Shown here one piece after another: positions 1 to 59,334 of a stretch of DNA of 64,000 nucleotides. Under the pieces are notes generated by a model. That model had not been told where the DNA came from. It did not search any database and saw nothing but the letters and a program-made list of their open reading frames with translations. The number at the start of each line of letters is the position of its first letter. Positions within the stretch are counted from its first letter, which is position 1. The position numbers and the translations under genes are program-made. The stretch lies in IMG/VR virus record IMGVR_UViG_3300025803_000010; one strand, 5' to 3'. Origin of the DNA: an uncultured virus (IMG/VR IMGVR_UViG_3300025803_000010). Its lineage: Duplodnaviria; Heunggongvirae; Uroviricota; Caudoviricetes.

Positions 1-273
1 TTTTCCATCATGAATAACTGGGTAATCATGTTCACCGATTTCACTTATAATAGTTTCGGCTTTTACGAATTCCCAACCCTCTCTCAGTTTTTTAGATACA
101 TTACCTGGATCTTCAAAACCTGCAGTGTGAGTTCTTATCCATCTGTGTGCATAACCTTGCGGTGCAGCTGGGGCATCCAAACTGGATGGTGGAGTCCAAT
201 CTTTCTTTCTAGAAGTTTTAATTCTAGTTTCAGACTCGCGTGAAGTTTTAATTTTACTTTTAATATTTTCCAT
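1..273 (-). CDS. Conserved head-module protein, truncated by window edge; paralogue of 62161..62625
   Basis: Hand translation from ATG at 273: MENIKSKIKTSRESETRIKTSRKKDWTPPSSLDAPAAPQGYAHRWIR...; open to position 1; shares WTPPSSLDAP and HRW with 62161..62625. Confidence 0.85.
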   Translation of the reverse strand, partial: MENIKSKIKTSRESETRIKTSRKKDWTPPSSLDAPAAPQGYAHRWIRTHTAGFEDPGNVSKKLREGWEFVKAETIISEIGEHDYPVIHDGK

Positions 274-274
274 A

Positions 275-1264
275 TTAGGCTCCTTCTTCCTTCACGTATT
301 TTGCGTATTCCTCTAGTGGCACCCCTAATTTCTTAGCGATAACTACCTGTGATTTGGTGAGTTTCACAGACTTGCGTCCACCTGATCTTCTGCTAACAGA
401 AGCTACGTTTTGGACGGGTGCAGCTTTTGTTTTTTCTTCAGTAGAAGATTGAGCAAATTTCTGAGGGAAATACTCCTTCATACGTTTGTTGATTTGATTA
501 TAGTATTCGTCAGTCTCTGCGTCAATTCCCTGCTGTACTAGATCTTCATGTATTCCCATTGCAGCAGAAGTAAGGACTCTATCTGTACCAAACCACTCAT
601 TATCAGTAGCCCATTCCTGAGCTTTATGGCTAATTTGTGGTTTTGCAGCTACAGTCTCTTCTTTAGGTCTTGACTCAGCTTCTTTCTTTTTCAATTCCTT
701 TTCACCTAAAGACATTGAAACTTTTTCTTTCTCAACAGCTAATTGTGTAAGCTTATCGTTAGCTTCCATAATTTTATCAGCATCTTGAGATTCTAATGCA
801 GCTTTTAAACTTGCTTTTGCTTGTTCTCTTTCTGCATCTACTCTAGCACCATACTCTTTGAGATAATTTGTATCCGTCTCTTCAAATTTTTGCTCAGTAG
901 TTTCGTACTTACTTTTAAGACCTTTAGCATAATCAACTGCAGCACGTTCTCTTCGTTCTGCTTCTTTAATTTGATATGTAAGTTTCTTAATTCTTTTTTG
1001 AACCTTATCAGAATAATCTTTAAGACCTTCTTCGTCTTCAGTTTTTTCTTCTAATTTAGTTTCTCTTTCGTTTTCAAACGTCTTATCTATTTCTTTTTCG
1101 TTTGAATCTGATTCTTGATTACTGACATCTACATAACCTAAGTCAACGTCTTCCTTTTTTTCAAATTCAGCATTGCTTACATTAGGTGCATCAACAGTAA
1201 TTACTTGTTCTTCAACGCCATCTGTGTCTAATTCCACATCTGGACTTTTATTTTCTTCAGCCAT
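275..1264 (-). CDS. Putative capsid scaffolding protein (copy A)
   Basis: Acidic coiled-coil, W-x3-N-x-WFG motif, C-terminal AKKLGVPLEEYAK; follows GroES; GGAGG SD. Confidence 0.75.
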   Translation of the reverse strand: MAEENKSPDVELDTDGVEEQVITVDAPNVSNAEFEKKEDVDLGYVDVSNQESDSNEKEIDKTFENERETKLEEKTEDEEGLKDYSDKVQKRIKKLTYQIKEAERRERAAVDYAKGLKSKYETTEQKFEETDTNYLKEYGARVDAEREQAKASLKAALESQDADKIMEANDKLTQLAVEKEKVSMSLGEKELKKKEAESRPKEETVAAKPQISHKAQEWATDNEWFGTDRVLTSAAMGIHEDLVQQGIDAETDEYYNQINKRMKEYFPQKFAQSSTEEKTKAAPVQNVASVSRRSGGRKSVKLTKSQVVIAKKLGVPLEEYAKYVKEEGA

Positions 1265-1273
1265 TTTTCCTCC

Positions 1274-1720
1274 TTAATAATGGTGCAAAATATCGGCTGG
1301 ATTAGAAATAGTAGAAATAACTTCATCGTCATTCAGTACCCTTACTTCACCACCCTCAATTTTGAATCTTGAACCTGCATACCTACTAAAAATTATCCAA
1401 TCATTTAGTTTGCACCAAGGCCCTTTAGGAAATTTATTATCATCATGATAACAAAGATCTCCCATTTTTAGCACAAGACCACAGACAGTTGTCATCTGTA
1501 TTGTTTCTTGTGTTGTGTCAGATAAATACAGACCGCCTTTAGTCTTCTTTGGCCCTGCATATGGCAGTACCAAAATTCTATAACCAGTAGGTGTCGGTAA
1601 TTTATCTAAGGTTGATTTATCGATCTTTTTAGGATCAAGGACTGTTTCTACTTCATCACGTGTTTTATACGCTTCTAGAAGTGCTTCAGTCCGTTTCGGT
1701 GTCTCCGTGGACTTGTTCAT
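1274..1720 (-). CDS. groES: Co-chaperonin GroES-like (copy A)
   Basis: PTGYRILV, KTKGGLYL, FSRYAG, RVLNDDEV motifs of Cpn10. Confidence 0.9.
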   Translation of the reverse strand: MNKSTETPKRTEALLEAYKTRDEVETVLDPKKIDKSTLDKLPTPTGYRILVLPYAGPKKTKGGLYLSDTTQETIQMTTVCGLVLKMGDLCYHDDNKFPKGPWCKLNDWIIFSRYAGSRFKIEGGEVRVLNDDEVISTISNPADILHHY

Positions 1721-1904
1721 CGTTATACTCCGTTTTTGACAGCAGGTCTTTTATATCCTGTTGCAGATCTTCTAGTGATCTGATTTGACCCCTAACATAT
1801 TGTAGTTTCTCTAGAGTGTCAACACCATATATAGCGTTTTGCTTGTATCTTTCAAGGTTCCTCGCTATAATTTTTTGTAGTAACGATATTGTATCTATAT
1901 CCAT
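1686..1904 (-). CDS. Small conserved hypothetical protein upstream of GroES
   Basis: 72 aa ORF, YVRGQIRSL motif, TAATG coupling to the upstream gene. Confidence 0.7.
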   Translation of the reverse strand: MDIDTISLLQKIIARNLERYKQNAIYGVDTLEKLQYVRGQIRSLEDLQQDIKDLLSKTEYNDEQVHGDTETD

Positions 1905-2482
1905 TAATTTCTCTTAAGTATTAATTTATTTTTTCCTTGTTTTAGCAGCATAAAACCAAATTCATTTACTATAACTTTTAAAATTGTATCCATGTTAAAT
2001 TTTGGATAGTCATCGAAAATAAATACTGTACCAGGTTTTGATCTTTCAGCAAAAAATACAGCTTCTTTAACAACATCGAATGTTTTATGTGGCCCATCAA
2101 AATGAACCAAATCATAGTGATTTATTATCTGTTTTTCATTCCTATAAATAGGAACACCATCTGAAAACCTTTTCATAAATTCATCATCACCCATAGGAAA
2201 TAATGTAAAATTTTCATAATCTAAATCTTTAATTAATTGCAGCTTCATGCTGTTTGTATAATCACAAGTGTACTTACCTGAATTATCATAATGCTCATAA
2301 TTTAAATTACCGTAAGGATCTATACCTATATGCCAATGTTTTTTATTTCTAAAAGCATCTAAAATTATTTTAGAACCTTCACCTTGTCTCACACCTATTT
2401 CACAAGTAAAAAAATCATCACCTGTCAAACTATCACATGCTAGTTTTAGCATGTCATATTCTATACTATCACCTTGGATCAT
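1904..2482 (-). CDS. Class I SAM-dependent methyltransferase (Methyltransf_24-like)
   Basis: CEIGVRQGEGS, GIDPY, LVHFDGPH, FIFDD motifs. Confidence 0.8.
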   Translation of the reverse strand: MIQGDSIEYDMLKLACDSLTGDDFFTCEIGVRQGEGSKIILDAFRNKKHWHIGIDPYGNLNYEHYDNSGKYTCDYTNSMKLQLIKDLDYENFTLFPMGDDEFMKRFSDGVPIYRNEKQIINHYDLVHFDGPHKTFDVVKEAVFFAERSKPGTVFIFDDYPKFNMDTILKVIVNEFGFMLLKQGKNKLILKRN

Positions 2483-2691
2483 GTTGGCCTCTTATCACTA
2501 CACATGTAACCAACAACACGTTGACCTTTGTATGTATGATAGGGTCTTTGGCTAAAAGTATCAGTTTTTATAACAGTCATTTTTATATTGTCTTCATACC
2601 ACTTATAACAGGATTCGTAAATAAGAATATTTTTTTGTTCTATCTTATTATTACTGACTAAAATTAATAATGTAATAATTAGTTCTTTCAC
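2479..2691 (-). CDS. Small hypothetical protein with hydrophobic N-terminus
   Basis: 70 aa, ATGA overlap with the next gene, two Cys. Confidence 0.55.
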   Translation of the reverse strand: MKELIITLLILVSNNKIEQKNILIYESCYKWYEDNIKMTVIKTDTFSQRPYHTYKGQRVVGYMCSDKRPT

Positions 2692-2716
2692 TTATTAAAA
2701 AAAGGTATCGTATATT

Positions 2717-3049
2717 TTACGTTCTGACATTGGTAGGTCTTGGCCCTGCGTTACCTGCTGCTCTTTTTCTGCTGACAGCACTCGCCTTTTGCGACTTTGA
2801 CATCGCTGTGGCTTTTGCAAGTGGTACGCACTTCGGATACTTCCGACTTGAACCACTGGCAGATTTTCTTCCACACTCTTGAAACTTGCCACCTTTTTTC
2901 TTTGCTCCAATATCTACCCATTTTTCATTAAACCATTTTGTAAGTCCACCAGACTTCATTGCAGGAACACAGTTGGGCACCATTCGGTTGCCTTTTTTCT
3001 TCATGCCCTTTTGGACATAGCCTTCCCAACATGATCCTTTTTTGTTCAT
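2717..3049 (-). CDS. Basic conserved phage protein (DUF5872-like)
   Basis: GLTKWFNEKWVDI and YPKCVP motifs; N-terminal CWEGY...VPNCVP module. Confidence 0.7.
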   Translation of the reverse strand: MNKKGSCWEGYVQKGMKKKGNRMVPNCVPAMKSGGLTKWFNEKWVDIGAKKKGGKFQECGRKSASGSSRKYPKCVPLAKATAMSKSQKASAVSRKRAAGNAGPRPTNVRT

Positions 3050-3423
3050 TTTTTGTATGCAGCTTTGTGTAAATTTGAAATTTCTTGTTTGCTAAGTTTA
3101 TTTCCACCATGCATTCTAATTCCATGAGCTAAGTCTGTTTTTGCATCAGATCTTTTTCCAGCACCTCTAACACCTGATTTCATAATTTCAATAATTTTTC
3201 TACCACCTGCTTTTTTATATTGTTTAAAACCATATTTAATTCCCGCAGTAATTAAACCACCAATCATAACTTTCTTAGGCCCCCAATCTTTTTTCTTAGT
3301 TCCTGAAGGATCTTTTATTTTACCTGCACATATTTTTGAAGCGTATGCGTTTGCATAAGCCGATGGATATACTTTAAATTTTCTTTTAGCCGCTGATTTG
3401 CCTCTTGCACATAATTTTGTCAT
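3046..3423 (-). CDS. Basic conserved phage protein
   Basis: LCARGKSAAKRKFKVYPSAYAN motif; Lys/Gly-rich. Confidence 0.7.
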   Translation of the reverse strand: MTKLCARGKSAAKRKFKVYPSAYANAYASKICAGKIKDPSGTKKKDWGPKKVMIGGLITAGIKYGFKQYKKAGGRKIIEIMKSGVRGAGKRSDAKTDLAHGIRMHGGNKLSKQEISNLHKAAYKK

Positions 3424-3810
3424 CTATTTTTTTCCTCCGTTACGGAAGATTTGTGTTCCCTTAATTCCGTATATGGATGCTACGACAAGGATCCACAAAT
3501 TAGTAAACCATGAAGGAAGCTGAGAGAACATATCAAAAAACAATTTTACTTTGTCCATCGCTGTTGGGTCATCCGATATCACTGCCCAAGCGAGCACCAA
3601 AACGGGCAAACTGAGAATTATGAGAACTGCCTCGTCTTTCCAGTCTGATTGTCTAGCCTCTAGCAATTTTCCCTGGTAAGCTTCGTCCCCTCGGGCCATA
3701 CGTTCAGCATGCATAAGTTGTGCATCTGACATAGCCATCTTAGTTTTCTGCTTATTAGCATAAATTTTACTTCCAGCATTTACTGCAAGTTTAATTGCAC
3801 TTAACCACAT
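3424..3810 (-). CDS. Putative holin / membrane protein
   Basis: Two hydrophobic segments after an SDWKDE motif; basic C-terminus. Confidence 0.55.
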   Translation of the reverse strand: MWLSAIKLAVNAGSKIYANKQKTKMAMSDAQLMHAERMARGDEAYQGKLLEARQSDWKDEAVLIILSLPVLVLAWAVISDDPTAMDKVKLFFDMFSQLPSWFTNLWILVVASIYGIKGTQIFRNGGKK

Positions 3811-4192
3811 AATATTTCTCCTGTCTTCTAAAACACATATAGTCTATCATTTTATCCATGCACAGAAAAGCCCCTTTACCACAGAGTTTCCACCTGTATG
3901 TTATTTTCCAATGTGCTTTTCTTTGTTTACATTCGTAAAATGTTCCACCAAACATATCGTGGAATCTTTTAACCATATCTTTATCAGTAGTTTCTACTGA
4001 ACAAGCAAAGTATCTAGGTTTTGACGCTCCTCTGCCTTTTGACCAAAGTCCAAAACTACCTTCGCCATCAAAAAGACCTGCTAAAAAAATTATTTTATTT
4101 TTTTCGCTTAATTTTTCGTACAAGTTTGTACTTATTACTTGTTTTGATGTCGATGCCTTGGGGGTTTGGGCCTCTTTTGGGTGGTGGGCCAT
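3791..4192 (-). CDS. Free-standing single-motif LAGLIDADG homing endonuclease
   Basis: FLAGLFDGEGSF motif and YRW strand; probable ATG at 4192 preceded by GGAGG. Confidence 0.8.
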   Translation of the reverse strand: MAHHPKEAQTPKASTSKQVISTNLYEKLSEKNKIIFLAGLFDGEGSFGLWSKGRGASKPRYFACSVETTDKDMVKRFHDMFGGTFYECKQRKAHWKITYRWKLCGKGAFLCMDKMIDYMCFRRQEKYYVVKCN

Positions 4193-4226
4193 ATTTTTTT
4201 CCTCCACTTAAGCCTTTCCTGCTCAT
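4095..4226 (-). CDS. Small basic protein (43 aa), missing from the ORF track
   Basis: MSRKGLSGGKKYGPPPKRGPNPQG...; ATGA overlap with the portal stop. Confidence 0.7.
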   Translation of the reverse strand: MSRKGLSGGKKYGPPPKRGPNPQGIDIKTSNKYKLVRKIKRKK

Positions 4227-6538
4227 TTTTGATCTAATTTATCTCTTGCAATATCAAGTCTTTCATCTGATTGTTGATCTTGTTGTGCAAGTCGGTCGTA
4301 TTCAAAATCTAATCTAGCTTGTTCTTGTATAGCGTCTTGTTCAGCTTTAAATTTTGTTTCTTGAGCTTTTCTTTGTAAATCCATAGCTCTTAAATCAATT
4401 TCTTGCTGTTTAATTCTTACAAGTGGATCTTCTTTTTTCTGAGCGGCCATTTCTCCTCTTACAAGCTCTTCAGTTATCTCTGCAGCAGCTGTTGCAACAG
4501 CATTATCAAATCTAATTTGAAAATCTTCAGGATTAGTTTGTTGCAATTGCATCATTTGTGGGTCTTCAGCTAACTGTTGCATGACTTCCTGTCTTGCTTT
4601 GAATGAAACGTGGTCAGAAACGTGTGCTTGAAGTAAAGCGTACACCGGTGGATTGATTTGAACCATTCTAGATTGCATAAATGCCATGTGTGCAGCAATA
4701 TGTGCATCGTGATCTTGGAATTCAAAAGCAGTTGCAAACTTCATTTGTAATGCACGTGCATTTTCTTTTGCAGGATCCATAGGTTCAGGTTGTTTCGGTG
4801 GTGGTTTAAGTAAAGTTTCAATTTGTTTTGTACCAAGTGCTTCATAAACACGTCTATATGCTTCATGTAAGTTGTGCATTTGTGGATTTGACTGTGCAAT
4901 TTGCAATTGTGTCTGTGCTAAAGTCACTCTTTGTGACATAGACATAATATTTGGGTCAGCAACAGGTATAATATCGACTCTTTGGTCAAAATCTGCCGCT
5001 TTAATTTCTCTTGGGCCACCATAAACATCGTAAGGATACTCTGGTGGTAAAAATTCACTACAAATTTTACCTAACATTTTAAATTCTAACCTCATTGCAT
5101 AATAACATCGCTTATGAACACCACTCATTACACGAGAACCTCTCTCCATCATTGCAATTGTAGTACCAACAGCTCTGTTTTGAACATCATTACCAATATT
5201 ATTGTCTGTAATAGCTGCAAATTTTTGTCCAGCTTGTACAACAAAACCTAAAAGGTTGTATAAAGTTGTGCTTGGCTCTGTAAATGGAAGATTAAAAAAC
5301 TGATCTCTAATATTTCCACCTGGTGCATCTACATCTCTAAACTCTCCAGGTTGAATTGGTTGGTCATCATCTCTAACTCTAATCCCTCTAGACTTAAATC
5401 CTGCTGGTAAATTTTTCAAAGTACCTGCATCTATTAATTGTCTTAATGTTTGTGTTGCAGCTCTGCTCAAACCACCAATCATATGAGTTAAACCGAATCC
5501 ATAAAAACCTAAACCAGGTAAAAATTTGTAATGTACAAAGTATTCTGTTCTTTGATAGCTAGGATCATTAGGTCTGTAATTTCTATAGATAGATAAAATT
5601 TCTGCTGAGCCTTCATCAATAGTAACAATGTAAGGTATTTTTATTTTTTTAGCTTTGTCATCAAAGTCTTCGTAGTCATCTAAATTTAAATCTACGTGTA
5701 CCTCTAAAATATTATGTAAATAATCTGAACCCGTGCCTTTAACACCTTCAAGTTCATTTAATTTTTTCTGCAATGGATCAGGTTCTGTATTACCTTTAAT
5801 TAATTCTATGTCTCTATAAAAACCTGCTGCTTGTTTTTTAATAACTTCGTTTTGAGTCATCTTAATTGTGTGTGAAATTCTTTCACAATCTTTCAGATCT
5901 GATGCAAAGTAAGGTACAACTAAATCTTCTGCGGGAATAAATTTAGATACTGGTCTACCTAACATTTCATCATAATAAACTTTTTTAAATGTAGATCCGG
6001 ATAATGGTAAATAGAATAACATTTGATCCATATCAGTTGTGTACTCTTCCATTTTATCCATTAATAAGTAATTCATGTATTCTTTAACTCTATCTGCTTG
6101 TTGTTCTGTTGCAGGAGTTTGTAAACCTATAATTTGTGTTCTTACAGGGCCATCACTAGGTATTAATTCTTTATAAGCTTGTGCTTGAAATTGTGTAACT
6201 GATTCTGCAAGTAAAGGGTGAGTAACACCACTTGCACCTTTAAATGGTTTTGTAACCTCTGTGTATTTAGTACCAAGTAAATCTAAGCCTTTGATGTAAG
6301 CATCTTCCCATTCTTTTCTGGATACTCTATCTTTTTTGTATTCATCAATTAAATCAGAAGCCATGGATTTAAGAGTACTCTCATCCATTTCCTCTGCTAA
6401 ATTAGCATTAAAATCTTGCTCAGGAGTTTCCTCAACTTCCTCTTCGCCTTCAACTATTACTTCTGGTGGAAGACCCTCAGGTTGTTCAGTAATTTCTTCT
6501 TCTGATACGATTGTATCGTTATTCTTTTCTACGGCCAT
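4223..6538 (-). CDS. Portal protein
   Basis: 771 aa; HPLLAESVTQFQAQAYKEL, FKKVYYD, FLPGLGFYG, RQLIDAGTL; coiled-coil C-terminus as in P22-like portals; near terL. Confidence 0.9.
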   Translation of the reverse strand: MAVEKNNDTIVSEEEITEQPEGLPPEVIVEGEEEVEETPEQDFNANLAEEMDESTLKSMASDLIDEYKKDRVSRKEWEDAYIKGLDLLGTKYTEVTKPFKGASGVTHPLLAESVTQFQAQAYKELIPSDGPVRTQIIGLQTPATEQQADRVKEYMNYLLMDKMEEYTTDMDQMLFYLPLSGSTFKKVYYDEMLGRPVSKFIPAEDLVVPYFASDLKDCERISHTIKMTQNEVIKKQAAGFYRDIELIKGNTEPDPLQKKLNELEGVKGTGSDYLHNILEVHVDLNLDDYEDFDDKAKKIKIPYIVTIDEGSAEILSIYRNYRPNDPSYQRTEYFVHYKFLPGLGFYGFGLTHMIGGLSRAATQTLRQLIDAGTLKNLPAGFKSRGIRVRDDDQPIQPGEFRDVDAPGGNIRDQFFNLPFTEPSTTLYNLLGFVVQAGQKFAAITDNNIGNDVQNRAVGTTIAMMERGSRVMSGVHKRCYYAMRLEFKMLGKICSEFLPPEYPYDVYGGPREIKAADFDQRVDIIPVADPNIMSMSQRVTLAQTQLQIAQSNPQMHNLHEAYRRVYEALGTKQIETLLKPPPKQPEPMDPAKENARALQMKFATAFEFQDHDAHIAAHMAFMQSRMVQINPPVYALLQAHVSDHVSFKARQEVMQQLAEDPQMMQLQQTNPEDFQIRFDNAVATAAAEITEELVRGEMAAQKKEDPLVRIKQQEIDLRAMDLQRKAQETKFKAEQDAIQEQARLDFEYDRLAQQDQQSDERLDIARDKLDQK

Positions 6539-6546
6539 TCTTTATT

Positions 6547-8490
6547 CTACCTTATGGGTTTAAATAAATCTACTACTAATCCTCCAGTAGATTTATATGT
6601 TTTAAATGTATCTTTCATCATTGGTGTAACCTTTATAGCAAATGAATCAAAATACAAGTTTGGATCGTTATCTGGTACAAATTTATAGCTAAGATCATCA
6701 GCTACTTCTTTACTCATAGTTGCCTTATCGTGAAATATAGATTTAATTCTTTTACCTGCTTTAGGGTGATTATCGGGATATTTAAACTCATCTGTTCTAA
6801 TTTTCTTGTATGGCATTTTGGGATCTGAGAGAGAAATTTTTACTGGCCCCGTGTTTGAATCATAAAACCTACCAACTTTTTTCATTAGGTTTGGCATTAC
6901 AGCTGAGCCTTTACCACCAATTCCCTTACCACTTGCGTAACCATAAAATCTTTCATTACCCGCTTTATAGCCTTGTCTAAAACTTAATTTGTCAAAAGGA
7001 GCAACGGCTACATAATCAACATTTTCTTTAGCTGCTTTATTAAGCAAATATTTTAATGCATGATCACCATAGGAATCTGCTTCAACCATAGGAAAGTAAT
7101 CATACTTTTGTCCACTGCCATAGTTATCAGCTCTCTGCCCATATGTTCTTTGTATTTTTTGATTTACATCTTTCAGGTCTTTGGCAATACTTTGTGCTCT
7201 TCCTGTTAAACCTTTCTTAATAGCTTCATCCATTTCTTTTAACATTTTACTTCTGTTGTTAACAAGTAAACCTAATTCTAAATCTGCTTGAAAAGGATTA
7301 ACACGTTTTTCGCCCCCTAGTTGTTGAAGCTTATTTAAATTTTTTGCAACTGTTTGGTTAGCGTCTGATTGTATTTCGTGAATTAAAAAAGCTTTCTTAC
7401 CATCTGGAGTATAACGTGTATCAAACCTTACGTGGTAGATCATATTTTTATTTACACCATCAAAGTGTCCAAATGTTTTAAAGGGAGAGGAGTTGCCAAC
7501 AATAGGCTCATCTAACTTCATAACAGTTTCTCTATAATTATTTCCCCCTTGTAAGGTATAACTAGCTTCATTACCATATCTTGTAGCTATAGTTTTATCT
7601 TTAAACGGTTGGGTTGTTTTATCAATTTCTCCAATTAATTTATTAACTCTTTGTTTTTCGTTTTGTGATAAATTTGTAGATTTAGATATATTTTTTAATC
7701 TTGTAAGTGATTCTCTAGCAGCAGAGCTTACTTGATCTGCTCCACCTTTCATACCTGATAGTGCATACACCGCTCCATCCAATTCATCTTTGATTGCAGC
7801 TAAACCTTTTATCTCTACAATACTTTGTAGTTTTTTTGCTTCATCAAGTAATTGAGGTTGTGCTTTTTCTAAAGCTTCCACAGCACCTTTAGGTAAACCT
7901 AGTTCAACAGGCTTTAACCTATTTACTGGATTTAATTTTAACATTGCACCTACTTCGTTTGCATCTAGCTTAATACCAAATTTTTTAGCTGCGTATAATA
8001 AGCCTCCAGTTAAATCACCTGCATCATTAAAGATTGCTAAGTTAGAATCAAATAATTCTTCTTTGCTGATTGATACTTCTTTTCCTTGAAAGGGGCCAGA
8101 GTCATATTTAAATCTTTTTTCATCTCTAATAGTTTTTTTAGCTGGTCTACCAAATATTTTAAAGTTAGCTGTTCTCGTTGATGTTAAATGATCTATCCAA
8201 TCCTCTGCACCAAACTTACCTCTTCCTTTTTTCATAACCCAATCGTAAGTCGATGAACCAAACGCAGGAGCTGTCTTGTCTCCCATATATAAGTTTTTAG
8301 TTTTATTTAATGGTTGAGTAACTGCAGGTAAGTTAAGTTCTTTCTTAGCTAACTCTTGCCCAGTTTGTGTTGCTGATTGTTTATCGTAAGTAATAAGTTT
8401 TTGTTGTTGTCCGGTGGCCGGTGAACTTGATACTTTCTTACTTGGTAATAATCGTTTGCCAAGTCCGACTAGAAGAGTCTTCAGGGACAT
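6547..8490 (-). CDS. Putative internal virion (injected) protein with an EIQSD-motif domain
   Basis: NYRE...HF...HVRF...LIHEIQSD motif; C-terminal KSTGGLV; lies between terL and portal. Confidence 0.5.
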   Translation of the reverse strand: MSLKTLLVGLGKRLLPSKKVSSSPATGQQQKLITYDKQSATQTGQELAKKELNLPAVTQPLNKTKNLYMGDKTAPAFGSSTYDWVMKKGRGKFGAEDWIDHLTSTRTANFKIFGRPAKKTIRDEKRFKYDSGPFQGKEVSISKEELFDSNLAIFNDAGDLTGGLLYAAKKFGIKLDANEVGAMLKLNPVNRLKPVELGLPKGAVEALEKAQPQLLDEAKKLQSIVEIKGLAAIKDELDGAVYALSGMKGGADQVSSAARESLTRLKNISKSTNLSQNEKQRVNKLIGEIDKTTQPFKDKTIATRYGNEASYTLQGGNNYRETVMKLDEPIVGNSSPFKTFGHFDGVNKNMIYHVRFDTRYTPDGKKAFLIHEIQSDANQTVAKNLNKLQQLGGEKRVNPFQADLELGLLVNNRSKMLKEMDEAIKKGLTGRAQSIAKDLKDVNQKIQRTYGQRADNYGSGQKYDYFPMVEADSYGDHALKYLLNKAAKENVDYVAVAPFDKLSFRQGYKAGNERFYGYASGKGIGGKGSAVMPNLMKKVGRFYDSNTGPVKISLSDPKMPYKKIRTDEFKYPDNHPKAGKRIKSIFHDKATMSKEVADDLSYKFVPDNDPNLYFDSFAIKVTPMMKDTFKTYKSTGGLVVDLFKPIR

Positions 8491-8500
8491 CGGAAACTCC

Positions 8501-9589: not shown

Positions 9590-9599
9590 AAAAATTCTC

Positions 9600-11321: not shown

Positions 11322-11345
11322 GTCGTAGCCCATAAGGGCTACGAC
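11322..11345. terminator. Perfect 10-bp hairpin downstream of the early gene block
   Basis: GTCGTAGCCC-ATAA-GGGCTACGAC, 10 nt after the stop at 11356; no clear U tract. Confidence 0.5.
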
Positions 11346-11355
11346 TACTGCGTGA

Positions 11356-46111: not shown

Positions 46112-46135
46112 GCCATATTATATCATAAGCAGTCT

Positions 46136-49307: not shown

Positions 49308-49310
49308 TTA

Positions 49311-49775
49311 TTAAGGACATTGTAAAGGACTGAATGAAGTAGTACCTGTAGATTCCATATAGCTACATACATTATGTGCTAATGGGAAACTAATACCAGA
49401 AGTATCTAAAGCTTTAAGAGCATCAACATAAGTTGATATTTCTGCTGCCATAGCATTATCAGGATTGAGTGCTAAGAAATGTTCAAAAATTTTAATCTCT
49501 GCAGCAACTGCTCCATCAAAATCTGATTTGTTAAGAAAGTGATGTGTTTTAATTCCATCTTCAGGAGCTTCTCTATCTTCTGAAACAACCCAAGCATTTT
49601 CAATGTAATGTTTGTTTCCATGTCTTACATCATTTGCCTCAGCTGTAGAAATTTCCATTTTAGTGTATTGTCCTTCAGTATATAATTCTTCTTGAAGGTT
49701 TTGTGCATTTACGTGTGCTTCAGTCAAACAGACTTTATGCATAGTTCCGTTATCTCTTTTAATTAATGTTGCCAT
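49311..49775 (-). CDS. Tail-fibre-associated hypothetical protein (possible chaperone)
   Basis: Directly downstream of the tail fibre gene. Confidence 0.5.
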   Translation of the reverse strand: MATLIKRDNGTMHKVCLTEAHVNAQNLQEELYTEGQYTKMEISTAEANDVRHGNKHYIENAWVVSEDREAPEDGIKTHHFLNKSDFDGAVAAEIKIFEHFLALNPDNAMAAEISTYVDALKALDTSGISFPLAHNVCSYMESTGTTSFSPLQCP

Positions 49776-49776
49776 A

Positions 49777-51027: not shown

Positions 51028-51066
51028 AAATTTTTTTCTCCTAATTTAAGTATAATTTTACTATTG

Positions 51067-52284: not shown

Positions 52285-52300
52285 TCATACCTTTTACTTC

Positions 52301-52735
52301 TTATGCAATCCTTAATATTGCAGCAGAGGTTGTAAACGCAGGAAATTGAATAGTGAAAGTTCCGCTAGTTGCAGTCTTATCACCACCAAAATCCAATACA
52401 GCCACCGCACTATTAGAGTTAGATGTATTATAAATTAGTGAACCTCTCGCAGTTAATGTAACGTTTGTAAACGATAGGTCTGCAAAGTCAGTTATAGCTG
52501 TGTTTGAAGCTAATGATGTTCCTGTGTTAACAAGAGCACCTCCACCTGAAGTGTATCCAGCAGGTGACGTAACTTCGTTACCAGTTGTAAATGAAGTTGT
52601 AGATTTACCTAAAGTTGCTGAGCTAGTGTACATAGATAATTTAAATTTATCACCAGTAGTCTGAGTGAAGTCATGTTTTGCTTCTAATAATTCTTTTTTA
52701 AAAGAATTACAGATTGCGTTAGTTGTTATTGCCAT
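52301..52735 (-). CDS. Virion structural protein
   Basis: SFKKELL..H.F, GYTSGG..L, VLDFGGDKT. Confidence 0.7.
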   Translation of the reverse strand: MAITTNAICNSFKKELLEAKHDFTQTTGDKFKLSMYTSSATLGKSTTSFTTGNEVTSPAGYTSGGGALVNTGTSLASNTAITDFADLSFTNVTLTARGSLIYNTSNSNSAVAVLDFGGDKTATSGTFTIQFPAFTTSAAILRIA

Positions 52736-52756
52736 AGTAGGCCTCCTTCTAAATTA

Positions 52757-53410
52757 TTAATTTGGCGATGGTGAAGGAACCTTAATTCTTGGCACTCCAT
52801 CATCGTATTCTGCACGTCTTCTTCTCCCCATTTGTTGAAGAGCAAAATTTTGTACTTCTTCATCATACTTCTTTTGATAGAGGTTGTATAGATCCATAGG
52901 CCCTTTTAAGAACCGGTATGCTTCAGCTAGTGTCCCATGTAATAACATAGACTCCTGATACTTAGAAATAAAAGTTTCGGTAGATGAAGTAAATTGAGGT
53001 GGATCCTGTATGTAGTTTATTTGTACACTATAATTAGAATCAGGGATTGGAGCTACTATAAAATTGAAGTCATCCCAATTAGCATAATATTTAGGTAGTC
53101 CTGTAGCTGCGTTGTTATTATATTCAGATATAAAACTTGTATCTCTTTTTTCTAAAAATGTTCTAGTAGAACCGCTAATTACTTGAACAGATCTAATAAT
53201 TGTTAAATCAGATGGAAGACTTACATATCTGTTTGAAGCAGTAAACGTAGAGTTTGAGTATTTTCTTAAATCATCATAATCAACCTTACCTGCAATATCT
53301 AATTCCACAGATCTTATAAAATCTTGAATAATAGCATCAGTCAAAACATTACTATCTACTTCTGTGTAGTTTCTAATTTGTGTTAAAAAATTTGCGTATG
53401 TTACTGCCAT
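52757..53410 (-). CDS. Head-tail adaptor / tail tubular protein
   Basis: PKYYA, APIPD, LLHG.L.EA motifs. Confidence 0.7.
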   Translation of the reverse strand: MAVTYANFLTQIRNYTEVDSNVLTDAIIQDFIRSVELDIAGKVDYDDLRKYSNSTFTASNRYVSLPSDLTIIRSVQVISGSTRTFLEKRDTSFISEYNNNAATGLPKYYANWDDFNFIVAPIPDSNYSVQINYIQDPPQFTSSTETFISKYQESMLLHGTLAEAYRFLKGPMDLYNLYQKKYDEEVQNFALQQMGRRRRAEYDDGVPRIKVPSPSPN

Positions 53411-53859
53411 TATGTTACCACTGTTACTGCACCCAATTGTGCGTTTAATTGTCTTCTTCTATTTTGTAAAGCAGGATCTTCTGGAATCATAGAATGAAGT
53501 ATAGAAGTTACTCCATTTCTTGTAATTTCAAAATCTTGTGTTTTGAATGCGAAGTCTCCAGGTAATTCTAAATTAGCAACACCAACCATTGTTCCACCAG
53601 AGTTAGTTATAGTCACATCACTTGTAGGATTATTTATAAATGGTTGTATAGGTTGTTGAAACTTTTGTACTCTTGCATTCTGTAAAGCTATTGCATCAGA
53701 TACTTGTCTTCGTCTTCTAATCTGTGGATGTTTTGGTTCATATTCAGATGTATGCACTAATGAACCATTCCATTCTTTTACCATTTCATTATATGGAAAA
53801 GCTTGTCCTGATCTATCAGATATAGCTAATGATCTTTTTCCAGTTGCAAACTTACCCAT
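53410..53859 (-). CDS. Conserved phage protein
   Basis: AISDRSG..FPY...EWNG..V...EYEPKHPQ. Confidence 0.7.
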   Translation of the reverse strand: MGKFATGKRSLAISDRSGQAFPYNEMVKEWNGSLVHTSEYEPKHPQIRRRRQVSDAIALQNARVQKFQQPIQPFINNPTSDVTITNSGGTMVGVANLELPGDFAFKTQDFEITRNGVTSILHSMIPEDPALQNRRRQLNAQLGAVTVVT

Positions 53860-54554
53860 TATACACCATCTCCAAAATATGTCTGAGGTGATATAAACGT
53901 AGAAGCTCTTTGACCATCTTCATCTAAAGCTCTTTTTAGTTCATCCTCATAAATTAATTTATTTTGTTGAACAAGTTGAGGAGCTTTTTTCATAGACGTG
54001 TAGTAAGCCATACCTGCAGCTAAACAAGGTAAAAATCTATAAACTACATCGGGGTCATTAGTATATGCTCCAGCGTCTTCAATTCTTTTTATCACATAGT
54101 ATTTTAAAGTTGTATAAGTATTTAAATCAGGTGCTTGGTATAAATAAATTTTAGGTGTTGTTTCTCTTGCAACATAATATTGTGATGGTTGTCCTACAGA
54201 TAACTTATTTGGTAAAGCAGCATATGTAGATCTGTCAATTTTTGATAAAGATATATCTTGAGTACTTGCACTATCACCTGATGCAGCTGTAGAAGAAACA
54301 AAAGCTTCTAGTACATCACTTACACTAGAGCTTACAGCATACTCAGCTTGTCCTGAAACTAAAGCTGCTTCATGCAAAGCTACTTTCCATAGATGTATTC
54401 CTCTATTACCCCATTCAGATAAAAGAAGATTTAAGCTTCTTCTTGCTGAACGCATATCATAACCAGAGTTAGTAGATAAACCACATCTCTCATAACCCTC
54501 ATCAATAATTTCATCTATGCTTAAATTAAAAGCAACTGTTCCAGATGTAGCCAT
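53859..54554 (-). CDS. Head-to-tail adaptor-like protein
   Basis: ARRSLNLL..EWGNRG..LW; RFLPCL..G.AYY. Confidence 0.7.
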   Translation of the reverse strand: MATSGTVAFNLSIDEIIDEGYERCGLSTNSGYDMRSARRSLNLLLSEWGNRGIHLWKVALHEAALVSGQAEYAVSSSVSDVLEAFVSSTAASGDSASTQDISLSKIDRSTYAALPNKLSVGQPSQYYVARETTPKIYLYQAPDLNTYTTLKYYVIKRIEDAGAYTNDPDVVYRFLPCLAAGMAYYTSMKKAPQLVQQNKLIYEDELKRALDEDGQRASTFISPQTYFGDGV

Positions 54555-54739
54555 TATTTGTTCTCCTTATTAGCGGCCGCTTTGAGAGTGTATGACTTCT
54601 CCTTTTTGCGGTTGTACAACTTCTTAGATTGTAGCACTTTTTGACTAAACTTTGAAGACCTTAGGCTTTTTGCGATATAATTTGGAGATGACACGTCTTT
54701 TCTTCTTTTTTTCATCTCTCGCTCCTCTAAGCTTTCCAT
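54554..54739 (-). CDS. Small basic hypothetical protein
   Basis: N.IAK.L...KF...V.QSKKLYNRK; start uncertain. Confidence 0.55.
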   Translation of the reverse strand: MESLEEREMKKRRKDVSSPNYIAKSLRSSKFSQKVLQSKKLYNRKKEKSYTLKAAANKENK

Positions 54740-54776
54740 CTATTTGTTTTGGTATTGCAGTTCTTCCTATTGGCAT
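54645..54776 (-). CDS. Small basic protein (43 aa), missing from the ORF track
   Basis: MPIGRTAIPKQIDGKLRGARDEKKKKR... Confidence 0.45.
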   Translation of the reverse strand: MPIGRTAIPKQIDGKLRGARDEKKKKRRVISKLYRKKPKVFKV

Positions 54777-55498
54777 AAGGTATTATAGAATACTTCACAG
54801 AGATTATCAACATTGATGATCTTATCAAATTTATAATGTACTGAGTCTTTATAGCCAAACTTGTATTTATAAACATCATCTACATACAAATGTATGCCTT
54901 TTTTAATATACTCTTTATTATGTAAAAGATGATAATAACCAGAGTTAATAGACACATACCCTGACATCTTGCTGCAAATTTCAGGTAAATGGTCAGCAGG
55001 CAGACGTTCAAATTGTTTAGTTGTAACAAAGTTAAATTGAGGAAATCTTTTTATTAATTCTTGTTCTACCTCTTTAGCATTCCATACACTCTTATGTTTT
55101 TGACCTGTTTCTAAAGCTAGTAGTATTGTCTTATCAAATTTATACCTATTATGTCTTATTTCAAAGTTAGGATAATGCTCAGGCTTTACTCCAAGTTTTT
55201 CACAATATTGTTCAACAATATTTGTTTTATCTTTAAAATCTTTCTTTGAATAAAGATGTATTATCTTTTCATATTCAAAATCAGTTTTAGCACCATAATC
55301 TAATGCAGCTAAATGTTCTAAACCAAATGATTGATTTATGTAAGTTTGTTGTGCATACAGATCAGGATATTGTGAAAACAGCACAATTTTATGAGCTTGA
55401 AAATTGTTATTGTAATAAGACCTAAGTGCAGCTGAAGCACAGAAATGATCTCCTAAACCTTTGTCAAAGATATCAGAAATAACAATTATATCTCTCAC
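54767..55498 (-). CDS. Possible glycosyltransferase (GT9-like)
   Basis: GLGD near the N-terminus and INSG..HL near the C-terminus. Confidence 0.5.
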   Translation of the reverse strand: MRDIIVISDIFDKGLGDHFCASAALRSYYNNNFQAHKIVLFSQYPDLYAQQTYINQSFGLEHLAALDYGAKTDFEYEKIIHLYSKKDFKDKTNIVEQYCEKLGVKPEHYPNFEIRHNRYKFDKTILLALETGQKHKSVWNAKEVEQELIKRFPQFNFVTTKQFERLPADHLPEICSKMSGYVSINSGYYHLLHNKEYIKKGIHLYVDDVYKYKFGYKDSVHYKFDKIINVDNLCEVFYNTLCQ

Positions 55499-55971
55499 AC
55501 AAGTTCTTTGGCTGATCCTAATATTGGTTTATATTTAGTTCTTCCCTCTGATTTATACGCATGTAAAAAACTAGCTCTTGGTGTTCCTTCAATCCAACTG
55601 CAATGTATCCATCCGCTGTTAGGTTCTCCAGGCGTATAGTATTCGAGGATCAGTTGATCTGGCTCAAGGTTATTTTTAATCCAATCAAAAAGTTCAGCGT
55701 TGTCGACTCCAACACATTCGAAGTCTGCGGCTTCAGCTTTGGCATGCTGCGAATTTGCAGAGCTGCCAATAGCCATACATAAATCCACGCTTCGAAATCC
55801 ACTGGTTACCTTAACTCTGCCGAAGTGATCACGTACTGGCTGTAAAATATTTTCACACAAACCTTTTAATTTTTCTATTTGTTCTGCGTTAGGATTATTA
55901 TTAATTCCCTTCCTAATTGCAGTATCTGATTTAGTTAACTCTGAAAGAGTAAAATTACGGCTTAAGTTCAT
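55495..55971 (-). CDS. Peptidase M15A endolysin
   Basis: SGFR, SQH...AAD, WIH motifs. Confidence 0.9.
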   Translation of the reverse strand: MNLSRNFTLSELTKSDTAIRKGINNNPNAEQIEKLKGLCENILQPVRDHFGRVKVTSGFRSVDLCMAIGSSANSQHAKAEAADFECVGVDNAELFDWIKNNLEPDQLILEYYTPGEPNSGWIHCSWIEGTPRASFLHAYKSEGRTKYKPILGSAKELV

Positions 55972-56476
55972 AGTTTTCCTTTAGTTCTAATACAATATTT
56001 AAATTAAATCTGAATTTGTTGTAAATTGGTGGACTTCCACAATGCAAGATATTGCTATTAAAGATTTTAGCTTGTCTTGGTTTATCATAATGTTTCTCGT
56101 CATTTATAATTGTATAACCATCGTCATCGATGCTATACACAATTGACAAAAAGTTATCATCATTCTCATCAACATGTAAAGACCCTACTGCTGATTTAGT
56201 ATATAAATTGTAATAATATCTTACAACATCTGCATTTATATTTAATTTTTTTTTAATTCTTGCAGCAATTGTATCTGCTATTTCAGTTAATTCTTTATTT
56301 TCTTTTGAAGTGTTTATGTTTTGTTTTGATTGTGGAATGCAGCAAAAACCATTATCAACAGTATAACCGTTTTTAGCATTATCTATAGATATACGCCAAT
56401 CGGAACATATCAATAGTAATTGTTTTAAATTTTCGTTTTCTTTTCTATCTAAAACTTCTTCGATTTTTTGAATCAT
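55955..56476 (-). CDS. 2OG-Fe(II) oxygenase-like protein
   Basis: HVD...SIVY...LHCG..P...RFNLN. Confidence 0.7.
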   Translation of the reverse strand: MIQKIEEVLDRKENENLKQLLLICSDWRISIDNAKNGYTVDNGFCCIPQSKQNINTSKENKELTEIADTIAARIKKKLNINADVVRYYYNLYTKSAVGSLHVDENDDNFLSIVYSIDDDGYTIINDEKHYDKPRQAKIFNSNILHCGSPPIYNKFRFNLNIVLELKENYELKP

Positions 56477-56689
56477 CTACTCCAGTATTAGCTTCTTTAT
56501 CGATAAACTTCCATCAATATTTTTTTCTAATTCTGCTTTTGATTTAATACATTGGTAAGAAACATTATTGTCTATTGCTCTTGAAGCTACTCTTTTACCT
56601 TTTAAACAATCACTCATAGAAACTTGTATTCTATGTTCTTTAATTTCATTATTTACTATCATTAGTAAAGCCACAACTGTTTCAATCAT
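56477..56689 (-). CDS. Small secreted-type protein
   Basis: Hydrophobic N-terminus, two Cys. Confidence 0.6.
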   Translation of the reverse strand: MIETVVALLMIVNNEIKEHRIQVSMSDCLKGKRVASRAIDNNVSYQCIKSKAELEKNIDGSLSIKKLILE

Positions 56690-56850
56690 AATACTTTACC
56701 TTTGTTTTGTCCTTGTTTAATGACATACTTTTGTGTACCATGTTTGCCAGTTTCAACTTCTTTTTTTAAATTTCTTATAAAGCTCATTTGTTTAGCTTTC
56801 TTTTCCATATCACTAATGTACTCAACTATTTTTCTAGTGACTCGTCCCAT
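56686..56850 (-). CDS. Small basic protein (54 aa), missing from the ORF track
   Basis: MGRVTRKIVEYI...GTQKYVIKQGQNKGKVL; ATGA overlap. Confidence 0.55.
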   Translation of the reverse strand: MGRVTRKIVEYISDMEKKAKQMSFIRNLKKEVETGKHGTQKYVIKQGQNKGKVL

Positions 56851-57211
56851 TTGCTCTAACCTTATCTTTTAAATCTTCAATATCACTTAATGCTTTTTCT
56901 AATTGATCTCTTAAAAATTCTATATTAACTTTATTAGTCATATTCATCTCTTGAGTTTCTTCCATTTTTTCTACAGATTTATATAAATCTTCTAATAAAA
57001 AATGTTGTTCTTGATCTACAGGTACTTGTTCAGATTTTTTAAGCAAATCATTTTCAAACAATTCTCTTGAAGTTTCTAACGATACTAACCTTGAAGTTAG
57101 TTCTGTATATGCAAATACACCCATAGCTACTAAAATAATTAAACTAGCAACTGTTTTCATTGGCATTTGCACAGCAGCCGATTCTGATATGTTAAGTGGT
57201 TTATTTGCCAT
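56834..57211 (-). CDS. Membrane-anchored coiled-coil protein (possible spanin-like)
   Basis: One N-terminal TM segment then coiled coil; near the endolysin. Confidence 0.5.
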   Translation of the reverse strand: MANKPLNISESAAVQMPMKTVASLIILVAMGVFAYTELTSRLVSLETSRELFENDLLKKSEQVPVDQEQHFLLEDLYKSVEKMEETQEMNMTNKVNIEFLRDQLEKALSDIEDLKDKVRANGTSH

Positions 57212-57453
57212 TTTTTTTCTTTTTTGGTTTAGATTCCATAGCTTTGGCTATTGCTGCACAAAGACGGTCTATTCCTCCGAAAAATTTATATAAAAATTTA
57301 TCAATCATCTATTTTAGGTTTTGGTAAAGGAATTATAATATCTTTTGAATCAAATTTCAATGAAGTGTGAGACGATGGTCTTACAAATAAAGCTAATAAA
57401 CACATCAATATAATTAGTATTGCAGTAAACCCATAGTTCATTTTGGGACTCCA

Positions 57454-57615
57454 TTAAGTTAACCAATTTTTTATCTTCTCCCAGAAAGCACTTATTTTAG
57501 TTATATTTTTACCGTTGTGATTGCATTTTTGACAATCGCAGCTAGGACAATTTCCAACTGTACCTTGACCAGGACAATGACATACGTGATTACAATTTAA
57601 ACACATTTTCCTCAT
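57454..57615 (-). CDS. Small Cys/His-rich protein (53 aa), missing from the ORF track
   Basis: MRKMCLNCNHVCHCPGQGTVGNCPSCDCQKCNH...; ATGA overlap with the upstream gene. Confidence 0.65.
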   Translation of the reverse strand: MRKMCLNCNHVCHCPGQGTVGNCPSCDCQKCNHNGKNITKISAFWEKIKNWLT

Positions 57616-58253
57616 TTTTTTTTCTCCATTTCGTAAAACATATTATCACTATCTTCAGTAACTAATCCAGAGTCCTCTGCATCCCAATACGTAGTTTGGA
57701 CTTTATAGTCTGGCCAGCTGTTATCAGTAGTATAACTATTAACGTGCCACAAAATGCGATTATTAGGCTGAGCTGCATAATTGCCGTTATCAAGAGCCAA
57801 TATGTGTGCACACTTATGTTCTTGAGGAATTTCAGAATGCTCGGTATCCAATATGTTAGTTTCTGGATGAGCCCAGTCAACTGTAAATAAATATTTTCCA
57901 TGTAAAAACTTTTTATCTAAACCTCTGTATTTACCGTTTAAACCAGCCAACCAATCAAAACAATGAACAGAAGGATAATAGCTAAAACAATTCCAAAGTT
58001 GAAGTTCACTAAGTCTTTGAGTGGGAACAGTTTCCGGTTGAAAACCACGTTGAATAAAAGCCGAAATTGGGATTCTCCAAAAGCACGCACCGTTGGGTAG
58101 CATGATATTAAATAATAACGCACGGCCTGATATCGATACCAAACCGAAGACAACGCAATCGTCAACTTCGCCTTGATGTTGTTTAAGATCATAAAGGTAC
58201 TCCTTTCTTACCTGACAATAAATTGGTGGTATGTTAGCATTTAAATAAGACAT
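57612..58253 (-). CDS. Conserved phage hypothetical protein
   Basis: YLNANIP, LQLWNCFS, YLFTVDW, EHKCAH, AAQPNNR. Confidence 0.75.
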   Translation of the reverse strand: MSYLNANIPPIYCQVRKEYLYDLKQHQGEVDDCVVFGLVSISGRALLFNIMLPNGACFWRIPISAFIQRGFQPETVPTQRLSELQLWNCFSYYPSVHCFDWLAGLNGKYRGLDKKFLHGKYLFTVDWAHPETNILDTEHSEIPQEHKCAHILALDNGNYAAQPNNRILWHVNSYTTDNSWPDYKVQTTYWDAEDSGLVTEDSDNMFYEMEKKK

Positions 58254-58256
58254 AGT

Positions 58257-58706
58257 CTAACATTTCCATCTACGTCTCGCTTGTCTGATTCTTGAATTTG
58301 GATCATTTCTAGTTTCTGCACTAGATCTTTTTAACTGACCTAGGCTTCTAGCACAATAACTTTTTCTTCTATTTGCTGCTTTAGATCCTTTTTTAACTTT
58401 ACCTGTTACTGCTGTTTTTAGTTTAGATCCAGGATTAGCACGTCTATATGCTGCAACACCTGCAGATGTCATACCTGCTCCTGATTTTGTTGATCTATAA
58501 TTTTTTTTATTTCTAGCAATTGGTTTCTCAGTTTCTCCACCTCTGCTAAATTTTTTTTTAAATTTTATTTTGAATTGACCATCTGCTTTTACACCAATGT
58601 CTAATCTAGAATTTTCAGTTGATTTACCAACATTAATAAAAACTTTTTCATCACTAGGATCGATACCTAAATTTAAATCTGAATAATAGCTTTTATCTTT
58701 AGACAT
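58257..58706 (-). CDS. Basic conserved phage protein (DUF6321-like)
   Basis: NPGSKLK, RRKSYCAR, C-terminal RRWKC. Confidence 0.7.
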   Translation of the reverse strand: MSKDKSYYSDLNLGIDPSDEKVFINVGKSTENSRLDIGVKADGQFKIKFKKKFSRGGETEKPIARNKKNYRSTKSGAGMTSAGVAAYRRANPGSKLKTAVTGKVKKGSKAANRRKSYCARSLGQLKRSSAETRNDPNSRIRQARRRWKC

Positions 58707-58707
58707 C

Positions 58708-58998
58708 TTACGTAAATGTAATTGAAACGTTTGGGCAATTAGTTACTGTGACGTGAACACCTTCTTCAAATAAAATACCTGAACCTGGAATATAAAGATC
58801 TAAACCTTCTGTTCCAAATCCATAAGTAGCTATTACATTTCCTGATCCTCCTCCACTTCTAAAAACTAAAAGTGCTGATGCAATACCTTCTCCTTGAATA
58901 GAAGTAACTCTTGCTCTTCTTCCTGTTGGAACTAATTGACCAGTTGCTGTAGCATGGGCATTACCCTGATCTGATGTAAAACTTCCTCCACCTGACAT
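58708..58998 (-). CDS. Small virion protein
   Basis: IPGSGILF motif; resembles 59002..59334. Confidence 0.65.
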   Translation of the reverse strand: MSGGGSFTSDQGNAHATATGQLVPTGRRARVTSIQGEGIASALLVFRSGGGSGNVIATYGFGTEGLDLYIPGSGILFEEGVHVTVTNCPNVSITFT

Positions 58999-59001
58999 AA
59001 A

Positions 59002-59334
59002 TTATCCGTTCTGTCCCGTTAAGTTAGGCCCTGAAAATTTATCAGTTAATAAAGTAACTGCTGTTACATTTGTTGCTGTAGATAAATAAAGTCCGTTAGT
59101 AAATAGTATTCCATCTTCAGGTAATGAAAAATTAATTACGTCTCCAGATGGTACATCGGCTGTAAATAAATTTGTACCACCAGATGAAGATCCCGTATTT
59201 AAAGATACTTGACCAGCACCACCCCCATCAGAAGCAATAATCATTCCTTTAAGTCTTACAGGAGAAGCAATAACCACATTCGATGTTGCAGTTCCCGCTA
59301 CTCTTGTTGCTTGTATATCAGCTTTAGCTGCCAT
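59002..59334 (-). CDS. Small virion protein (own start inside the fused 311-aa ORF)
   Basis: ATG at 59334 after AAGGAG; LPEDGILF motif. Confidence 0.7.
   Translation of the reverse strand: MAAKADIQATRVAGTATSNVVIASPVRLKGMIIASDGGGAGQVSLNTGSSSGGTNLFTADVPSGDVINFSLPEDGILFTNGLYLSTATNVTAVTLLTDKFSGPNLTGQNG

Follow-up and report, generated by a model that had tools for sequence, protein, structure and literature searches.

Complete absence of GGWCC and GCGC from 59.7 kb of an uncultured phage lineage related to the Pelagibacter phages HTVC023P and HTVC027P

Gene content and relationship to HTVC023P-type phages

The DNA analysed here, 64,000 nucleotides of the uncultured-virus record IMGVR_UViG_3300025803_000010 (the window), lacks two short palindromes, GGWCC and GCGC, throughout its first 59.7 kb. 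Judged by its genes, the window represents an HTVC023P-type podovirus of an uncultured lineage: its terminase and capsid protein are homologous to those of the group, and the synteny of the group is kept. The large terminase (TerL; 9600..11075, minus strand) shares 70% amino acid identity with that of HTVC023P (MN698239) and 63% with that of HTVC027P (MN698241), both Pelagibacter phages, and the gene order of the two is syntenic with the entire window, in reverse. The window has the same set of GroES, PolA, primase, SNF2 helicase, 2OG-Fe(II) oxygenases and peptidase M15 as the HTVC023P-type phages, and further encodes a UvrD-like helicase, a portal protein, Pam3 gp33/34-like proteins and SU10-type adaptors; the 2OG-Fe(II) oxygenases are numerous. 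No tRNA genes were found in the window. The sequencing runs that contain the sequence are labelled as marine, freshwater and aquatic metagenomes.

GGWCC and GCGC are missing from the lineage A backbone

By direct count, neither GGACC nor GGTCC occurs in positions 1-59,911, and all four GGWCC copies of the window lie at 59,912, 60,532, 63,771 and 63,807. The stretch that is free of both palindromes, 1..59722, is referred to as the lineage A backbone. For 1-59,030, Markov models of order 0, 1, 2 and 3 predict 33.4, 33.8, 36.2 and 28.6 GGWCC, respectively. The window is 94% coding, and a codon-based expectation was obtained from 500 synonymous shuffles within genes, over 83 non-overlapping open reading frames (ORFs) in 1-59,700. 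These shuffles gave 33.5 +/- 3.2 GGWCC, with a minimum of 24, versus none observed, while GGSCC is in clear excess (52 vs 18.3 +/- 3.7). A first-pass annotation of the sequence had proposed GGWCC avoidance over the left 59 kb, and the counts bear this out more strongly than it was claimed. Ten of the 13 GGSCC positions given there are exact, the other three being off by one (2742, 28437 and 59027 in place of 2741, 28436 and 59026). The site-free stretch extends beyond 59,030, to 59,911 for GGWCC and 59,722 for GCGC, but the description of the avoidance as genome-wide does not hold for the last ~4.3 kb, where both words occur at expectation (GGWCC 4 vs 2.3, GCGC 6 vs ~7).

The annotation had also described Gly-Pro pairs as written with GGC or GGG despite a Gly usage rich in GGT and GGA, and this applies to every one of the 33 pairs: Gly before Pro is GGG (16) or GGC (17), codons that account for 235 of the 1,336 Gly codons overall, GGT and GGA making up 82%. 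Gly-Pro pairs account for about 27 of the ~33.5 GGWCC expected, which would suit an explanation unrelated to defence, either a bias of translation for certain codon pairs at Gly-Pro or a peculiarity in the composition of the phage group. This explanation is scarcely credible. The two frames outside Gly-Pro are empty too (0 vs 6.9 expected, a zero reached by 0 of 300 shuffles), GCGC is purged as well, and relatives with the same Gly-Pro pairs write them with GGA or GGT. In the pooled 298 relative loci (at least 5 kb each, from five scans; they do not represent as many independent lineages, and some contigs were retrieved twice), GGWCC is even slightly over-represented, with 2,296 copies versus 2,020 expected.

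The first-pass annotation covered GGWCC only, and the purge of GCGC is equally complete. In 1-59,722 there are 0 copies versus 29.3 +/- 4.6 in the codon shuffles (minimum 18), the first copy being at 59,723. None of the 500 shuffles fell below 24 GGWCC or 18 GCGC. Chance was considered as a cause of the absence and rejected. At the codon level, GCG is used for none of the 182 Ala codons that precede a codon starting with C, and NGC precedes Ala in none of 140 eligible pairs. The loss is uniform along the backbone, each 8-kb block up to 56 kb having 0 GGWCC (3.8-6.6 expected) and 0 GCGC (2.9-7.5 expected). The GC-rich island at 12.2-14.3 kb (45% GC) is no exception, with 0 of 2.6 and 0 of 4.2 expected copies of the purged sites. 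Control palindromes match expectation (CCWGG 70 vs 70.8, CCGG 30 vs 33.1, GATC 205 vs 213.2, GANTC 126 vs 123.9). General CpG depletion was considered and rejected on the count for CCGG, and CGCG is only mildly low in the codon shuffles (7 vs 12.6). In a scan of symmetric words of four to six bases over 1-59,700, GGWCC and GCGC were the sole wholly missing motifs with a large expectation; the remaining zero rows are forms containing GCGC.

The substitutions that accompany the loss bear on how it came about. The GGWCC deficit (~34) equals the GGSCC excess (~34), and GGWTC/GAWCC, the products of C>T change, are as frequent as expected (178 vs 177.7). The transition products of GCGC, GTGC and GCAC, are in excess (279 vs 223.4 +/- 10.6), as a purely mutational decay would predict, in which sites carrying 5-methylcytosine, placed there by a methyltransferase of the host or the phage, eroded by deamination with no selection through cleavage. 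However, synonymous NGC to NGT changes produce this excess equally well, the whole deficit of GGWCC reappears as GGSCC, a change at the unmethylated central W, and decay alone would not yield 0 of ~63 sites with the amino acid sequences kept. We consider such decay very improbable.

The loss is confined to a narrow lineage

Eighty IMG/VR loci with a TerL protein 81-100% identical to that of the window were surveyed. GGWCC is absent from three, which are all members of lineage A and lack GCGC as well, whereas the other 77 carry at least three GGWCC. Within this trio, L003 and L004 are 99.8% identical to the window at the nucleotide level and L005 is ~86% identical (92.7% in TerL). L003 matches 2,819-21,074 at 99.8%, with 0 GGWCC and 0 GCGC, and an independent 45.9-kb IMG/VR contig (G001), 99.97% identical to 11,336-57,248, likewise has 0 of both. 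A further locus (L006) matches the window at 100% identity apart from its first ~450 nucleotides, which are foreign, map beyond window position ~11,000 and hold all of its three GGACC and its one GCGC within 200 nucleotides. The ends of several lineage A contigs coincide at ~2,800, ~11,300 and 57,248, which suggests that these are break points caused by strain variation.

In a TerL tree, calculated without L004 because of its in-frame stops, the window, L003 and L005 cluster on a single long branch, and the closest unpurged TerL is 82% identical in nucleotide sequence. Three TerL columns contain GGWCC in 58, 42 and 31 of 60 unpurged relatives, and in neither the window nor L005. At a conserved TerL Gly-Pro (10,471-10,475), the window and L005 read GGGCC on the coding (minus) strand, corresponding to GGCCC on the plus strand of the window, where GGACC or GGTCC is found in 58 of the 60 unpurged relatives. 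The protein sequence is retained at the orthologous TerL sites examined. In the cultured phages GGWCC is plentiful and GCGC occurs at a normal level, with 62 GGWCC (40.5 expected) and 31 GCGC in HTVC023P (first 50 kb only) and 57 GGWCC (38 expected) and 36 GCGC in HTVC027P (57.6 kb), while the window is without both through 59.7 kb. Hence, the purge is not shared by close relatives and is not a property of composition.

The same pair of sites is lost in a second lineage, and other palindromes in further relatives

GGWCC is absent from six of the 298 relative loci, with 3.5 expected by chance. Two of the six, L379 (1-8978) and L320 (1-6280), are 99.95% identical to each other. They match the window at ~70% nucleotide identity over the ~4.2 kb that aligns, with 47% amino acid identity in gp56. 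They have 0 GGWCC (5.1 expected), 0 GCGC (4.6) and 0 CCGG (5.5), GGSCC is in excess (7 vs 1.7), and Gly-Pro is written with GGC or GGG in 7 of 7 pairs. Loci of at least 3 kb whose gp56 is closer to that of the window (65-76% identical) carry GGWCC. Since this unrelated lineage is purged while closer gp56 relatives retain the sites, the combined loss of GGWCC and GCGC is convergent and arose at least twice.

Other words are missing more widely. GCGC is absent from 31 of the 298 loci (2.7 expected by chance) and CCGG from 42 (5.4 expected), including a clade at 82-99.9% nucleotide identity; L387 (20,741 nucleotides) has no GATC, CCWGG or GCGC. Relatives wholly without some palindrome include, besides L387, the loci L160, L149, L142 and L083, and L128, L120, L349 and L348. 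As purges of GCGC and CCGG are common in the phage group, GGWCC is the discriminating part of the lineage A signature.

Three six-base palindromes, AGTACT, CCTAGG and CTTAAG, occur group-wide at ~0.3 of the pooled expectation. For AGTACT, the window has 2 copies vs 15.5 expected (6374 and 54261), HTVC023P 0 vs 13.9 and HTVC027P 1 vs 14.9; CTTAAG in HTVC023P amounts to 0 vs 16.3 expected (50 kb). This group-wide depletion is an older, shared layer of avoidance, and the depletion of AGTACT and CTTAAG is all that the two cultured phages have in common with the window in this respect.

The right end carries an unpurged capsid module

The right end of the window (59723..64000) contains, next to the four GGWCC copies, GCGC at 59723, 61571, 61913, 62307, 62517 and 63555. 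Within it lies a capsid module of a second lineage, 'B' (60060..62136, minus strand), which aligns nearly identically with L163. The alignment continues down to ~60,060, is followed by intergenic divergence, and left of ~59,890 the two are unrelated; L163 itself (7.8 kb) carries GGWCC and GCGC along its whole length. The B version of the major capsid protein (60571..61482, minus strand; Pfam Phage_capsid_4, E = 1.3e-12) is 88% identical in amino acid sequence to the capsid protein of HTVC027P. It is joined by B versions of a gp56-like gene (62630-63610) and a GroES-like gene (63626-63925), both on the minus strand and paralogous to copies at the left end. There, the A versions comprise, again on the minus strand, a gp57-like N-terminus cut by the window edge (273 to 1), a gp56-like gene (275-1264) and a GroES-like gene (1274-1720). 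The A and B copies share 64% amino acid identity for GroES and 40% for gp56. GroES, gp56 and the gp57 N-terminus are thus present twice, as a divergent set in 1-1,720 and as a second one, nearer to HTVC027P, in 62,161-63,925, which implies that the window exceeds one genome turn (~62.4 kb) and holds two lineages. No long repeat in the window marks a closure.

Sequencing depth separates the two sides as well. Unique unitigs were deeper on the right than on the left in four of four runs from four studies (~23 vs 8, 300-400 vs 108, 84 vs 14.5 and 43-90 vs 10.7), that is, the B side is 3-8 times deeper than the A side, with a ratio that varies between runs. The final ~4 kb is that of another lineage, one of greater abundance. 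The window is probably a chimeric contig, in which the assembler crossed from one co-occurring relative to another at a position of homology. A random concatenation of two records was rejected, as the join is syntenic and has no repeat.

A natural and very recent recombinational replacement of the capsid module in lineage A would also place the join at a homologous, syntenic position, and variation of modules and cassettes is seen nearby, in the foreign end of L006, in a run X4 contig lacking 59,000-59,351 and in differing gp62 alleles. Such a replacement is nevertheless the less likely of the two. It leaves unexplained why GroES, gp56 and the gp57 N-terminus occur twice at 40-64% amino acid identity in a window that passes one turn without closing on itself, and why the unitigs of the B side are deeper in every run by a differing ratio. 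No other contig joins the two sides, G001 stopping at 57,248 and L163 diverging at ~60,060, and the ten unpurged sites would leave such a recombinant exposed. No unitig bridges 59.3-60.1 kb in the four runs, where all unitigs are short, so that this is evidence for neither side. With the A version of gp56 as a query for the capsid module of lineage A itself, the best full-length IMG/VR match was 74% (83% for a partial one) and the best among metagenome contigs 76%; a flank query (57612-58253) returned nothing closer than 84%. These searches did not recover the capsid module of lineage A. For the purge the distinction is irrelevant, since independent contigs confirm it for 2.8-57.2 kb.

Between the two sides lies a variable gp62-like gene (59376..59937, minus strand) of ambiguous lineage, in which the first copies of GCGC and GGWCC are located. 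The Gly-Pro conserved at its N-terminus is encoded by GGA-CCG. In runs X1 and X4 the unitig depth of this gene resembles that of the A side, and both sites may thus be genuine features of lineage A. An extra base in a run of A (A4, 59397..59400) fuses the gp62-like and gp63-like ORFs into one of 311 amino acids (59002-59937). In six of six aligned relatives the run is one base shorter, with a TAA stop, and one contig of run X4 also lacks the base at 59,397; the extra base is likely to be a sequencing or assembly error, or else a variant. The contig of run X4 that joins 59,000 to 59,351 (depth 14.6) does so with 13 other letters and represents a variant without the gp63-like gene.

Restriction-related genes in the window and other genes

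No DNA methyltransferase and no known anti-restriction family was detected in the window by Pfam (53 proteins) and PHROGs (66 proteins), many ORFs being unannotated. The sole methyltransferase match is to Methyltransf_24 (1904-2482), which has a homologue in the unpurged HTVC027P. The result fits a strategy of having no targets.

Targets could also be missing because lineage A itself encodes an endonuclease for GGWCC and/or GCGC, directed against the DNA of the host or of rival phages, and keeps its own genome free of them. Many ORFs of the window have no family match and could accommodate such an enzyme. One of these, an ORF of 203 amino acids (12197-12808) in the GC-rich variable island, lies inside the part of the window covered by the alignment with the purged L005, has homologues in three unpurged relative loci only (at most 56%) and has no annotated relatives in Pfam, PHROGs or the ESM Atlas. 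Yet no nuclease signature was found in it, and the recognizable nucleases of the window, an HNH protein (3791-4207), a PD-(D/E)XK protein (31186-31851) and two endonuclease V-like proteins, all have homologues in relatives without the purge. An explanation of this kind would also call for two different specificities, and the scatter of GCGC and CCGG purges over many unrelated lineages of the group is better explained by host diversity. Self-avoidance is therefore improbable.

Several other genes stand out. A full-length gene of the tryptophan halogenase family (15178-16629; Pfam E = 4e-93) has homologues in two relative loci only, at 33% identity. At least seven genes of the 2OG-Fe(II) oxygenase family, together with one for a DUF6445 protein and a ferrochelatase-like gene (47420-47983), are spread over the genome (21009-24994, 42035-42682 and 46136-48576). 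The GC-rich island (12200-14300; 40-52% GC vs 34.6% overall) contains small unannotated ORFs.

Search for the host and for cognate enzymes

The host is presumably a SAR11-type bacterium. This assignment follows from the kinship to HTVC023P and HTVC027P, both isolated on Pelagibacter HTCC1062. A scan of genome contigs for TerL matched three contigs in metagenome-assembled genomes (MAGs) labelled Maricaulis, Alphaproteobacteria and Legionellales. The binning of these contigs is doubtful; each is probably a phage contig binned into the MAG, and they give no usable host signal.

A cognate restriction enzyme or methyltransferase was found in none of the candidate hosts. Among 401 alphaproteobacterial genomes, the RE_SinI profile (PF09570) had a single borderline match, and it matched none of the 14 genomes used as controls. 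With silent controls this search has little power; there were also no matches in the three MAGs with TerL-matching contigs. In the available text of a marine methylome study, Pelagibacterales MAGs have only GANTC-type methyltransferases and motifs, GGWCC methylation (N4-methylcytosine) is listed only for viral MAGs, three of them, and that of GCGC (also N4-methylcytosine) for one Planctomycetes MAG (PMC8919816). The accessible parts of two recent SAR11 surveys describe restriction-modification and other defence genes as sporadic and located in genomic islands, which are under-represented in MAGs, and state that direct evidence is lacking (PMC13712998; bioRxiv 10.64898/2026.04.03.716430).

Discussion

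Avoidance of restriction sites, and of palindromes in general, has long been known from bacteriophage genomes. GGWCC and GCGC are the recognition sequences of Type II restriction-modification systems of the AvaII/SinI type and the HhaI/HinP1I type, respectively, and are exactly the words purged from the window; the link to these systems is one of sequence alone. As in other phages that avoid restriction sites, short Type II-like palindromes are depleted, and the removal is synonymous; no cognate methyltransferase was recognized in the phage by Pfam or PHROGs. The window differs in that the depletion is total and extends to two sites over ~59.7 kb, in that the purge marks one narrow sub-lineage whose nearest sampled relatives (82% nucleotide identity in TerL) have normal or excess counts, so that its phylogenetic limit is sharp, and in that an unrelated lineage of the group shows the purge again.

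The loss of sites is complete, independent of the reading frame, specific to lineages and twice evolved. Type II restriction enzymes of the host, with GGWCC and GCGC as their targets, are the likely source of the selection behind it. Selection is favoured over mutation bias because the GGWCC deficit is matched by change at the central W with the deamination products at expectation, the proteins are kept, all frames are hit and the outcome evolved twice. The host population of lineage A would carry Type II enzymes for both sites, and the phage would have lost these mostly through synonymous changes at third positions, with Gly-Pro shifting from GGW-CCN to GGS-CCN, NGC-GCN becoming NGT-GCN and GCG avoided before C. 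It would thus rely on having no targets, and not on methylating or masking its sites.

The first-pass annotation had attributed the avoidance to a host defence specific for GGWCC. The pattern is what restriction avoidance predicts, but neither the cognate enzyme nor the host has been found, and several observations weigh against this attribution. The host assignment is based only on kinship to two phages of Pelagibacter HTCC1062, with the nearest TerL at 70% amino acid identity, and relatives of the group bear other host labels (DSL-LC04, Gammaproteobacteria; CRP-901, Roseobacter). The failure to find an enzyme in any candidate host, in a search of little power, and the methylome data, with GANTC-type motifs in Pelagibacterales and GGWCC in viral MAGs, point the same way. 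Moreover, the ten unpurged sites of the capsid module would be hard to reconcile with ongoing restriction, should the window be a natural genome. Restriction enzymes as the selective agent are thus what we infer from the pattern, and the use of the purge signature for identifying the host is a prospect.

The phenomenon itself is textbook knowledge, and the value of the present case lies in its setting and in its use for linking phages to hosts. We found no reports of restriction-site avoidance in pelagiphages in the literature, the search having left subscription journals mostly outside. The setting is a group of phages associated with the most abundant bacterium of the ocean. The defences of this bacterium, SAR11, are under dispute, and it is openly debated whether it mounts an active defence against its phages, which are very abundant. 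The loss of all of ~63 expected sites, where related phages have normal numbers of them, bears on this question as indirect, though quantitative, evidence. It points to Type II restriction as a strong and strain-specific source of selection on these phages, and it predicts a co-occurring host with GGWCC- and GCGC-specific systems.

Tentatively, the pattern may be more general, with closely related HTVC023P-type phages bearing distinct 'avoidance barcodes', each a set of short palindromes that are missing altogether, and the host population holding a strain-level patchwork of Type II restriction systems. Examples of such barcodes are GGWCC and GCGC in the window, GGWCC, GCGC and CCGG in L379, GATC, CCWGG and GCGC in L387, and CCGG or GCGC alone in many others. 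If this is true, the presumed SAR11 host, long thought to be poorly defended, exerts a pressure that erases more than 60 sites from a 60-kb phage, and the barcodes could serve to pair uncultured phages with host strains or methylomes.

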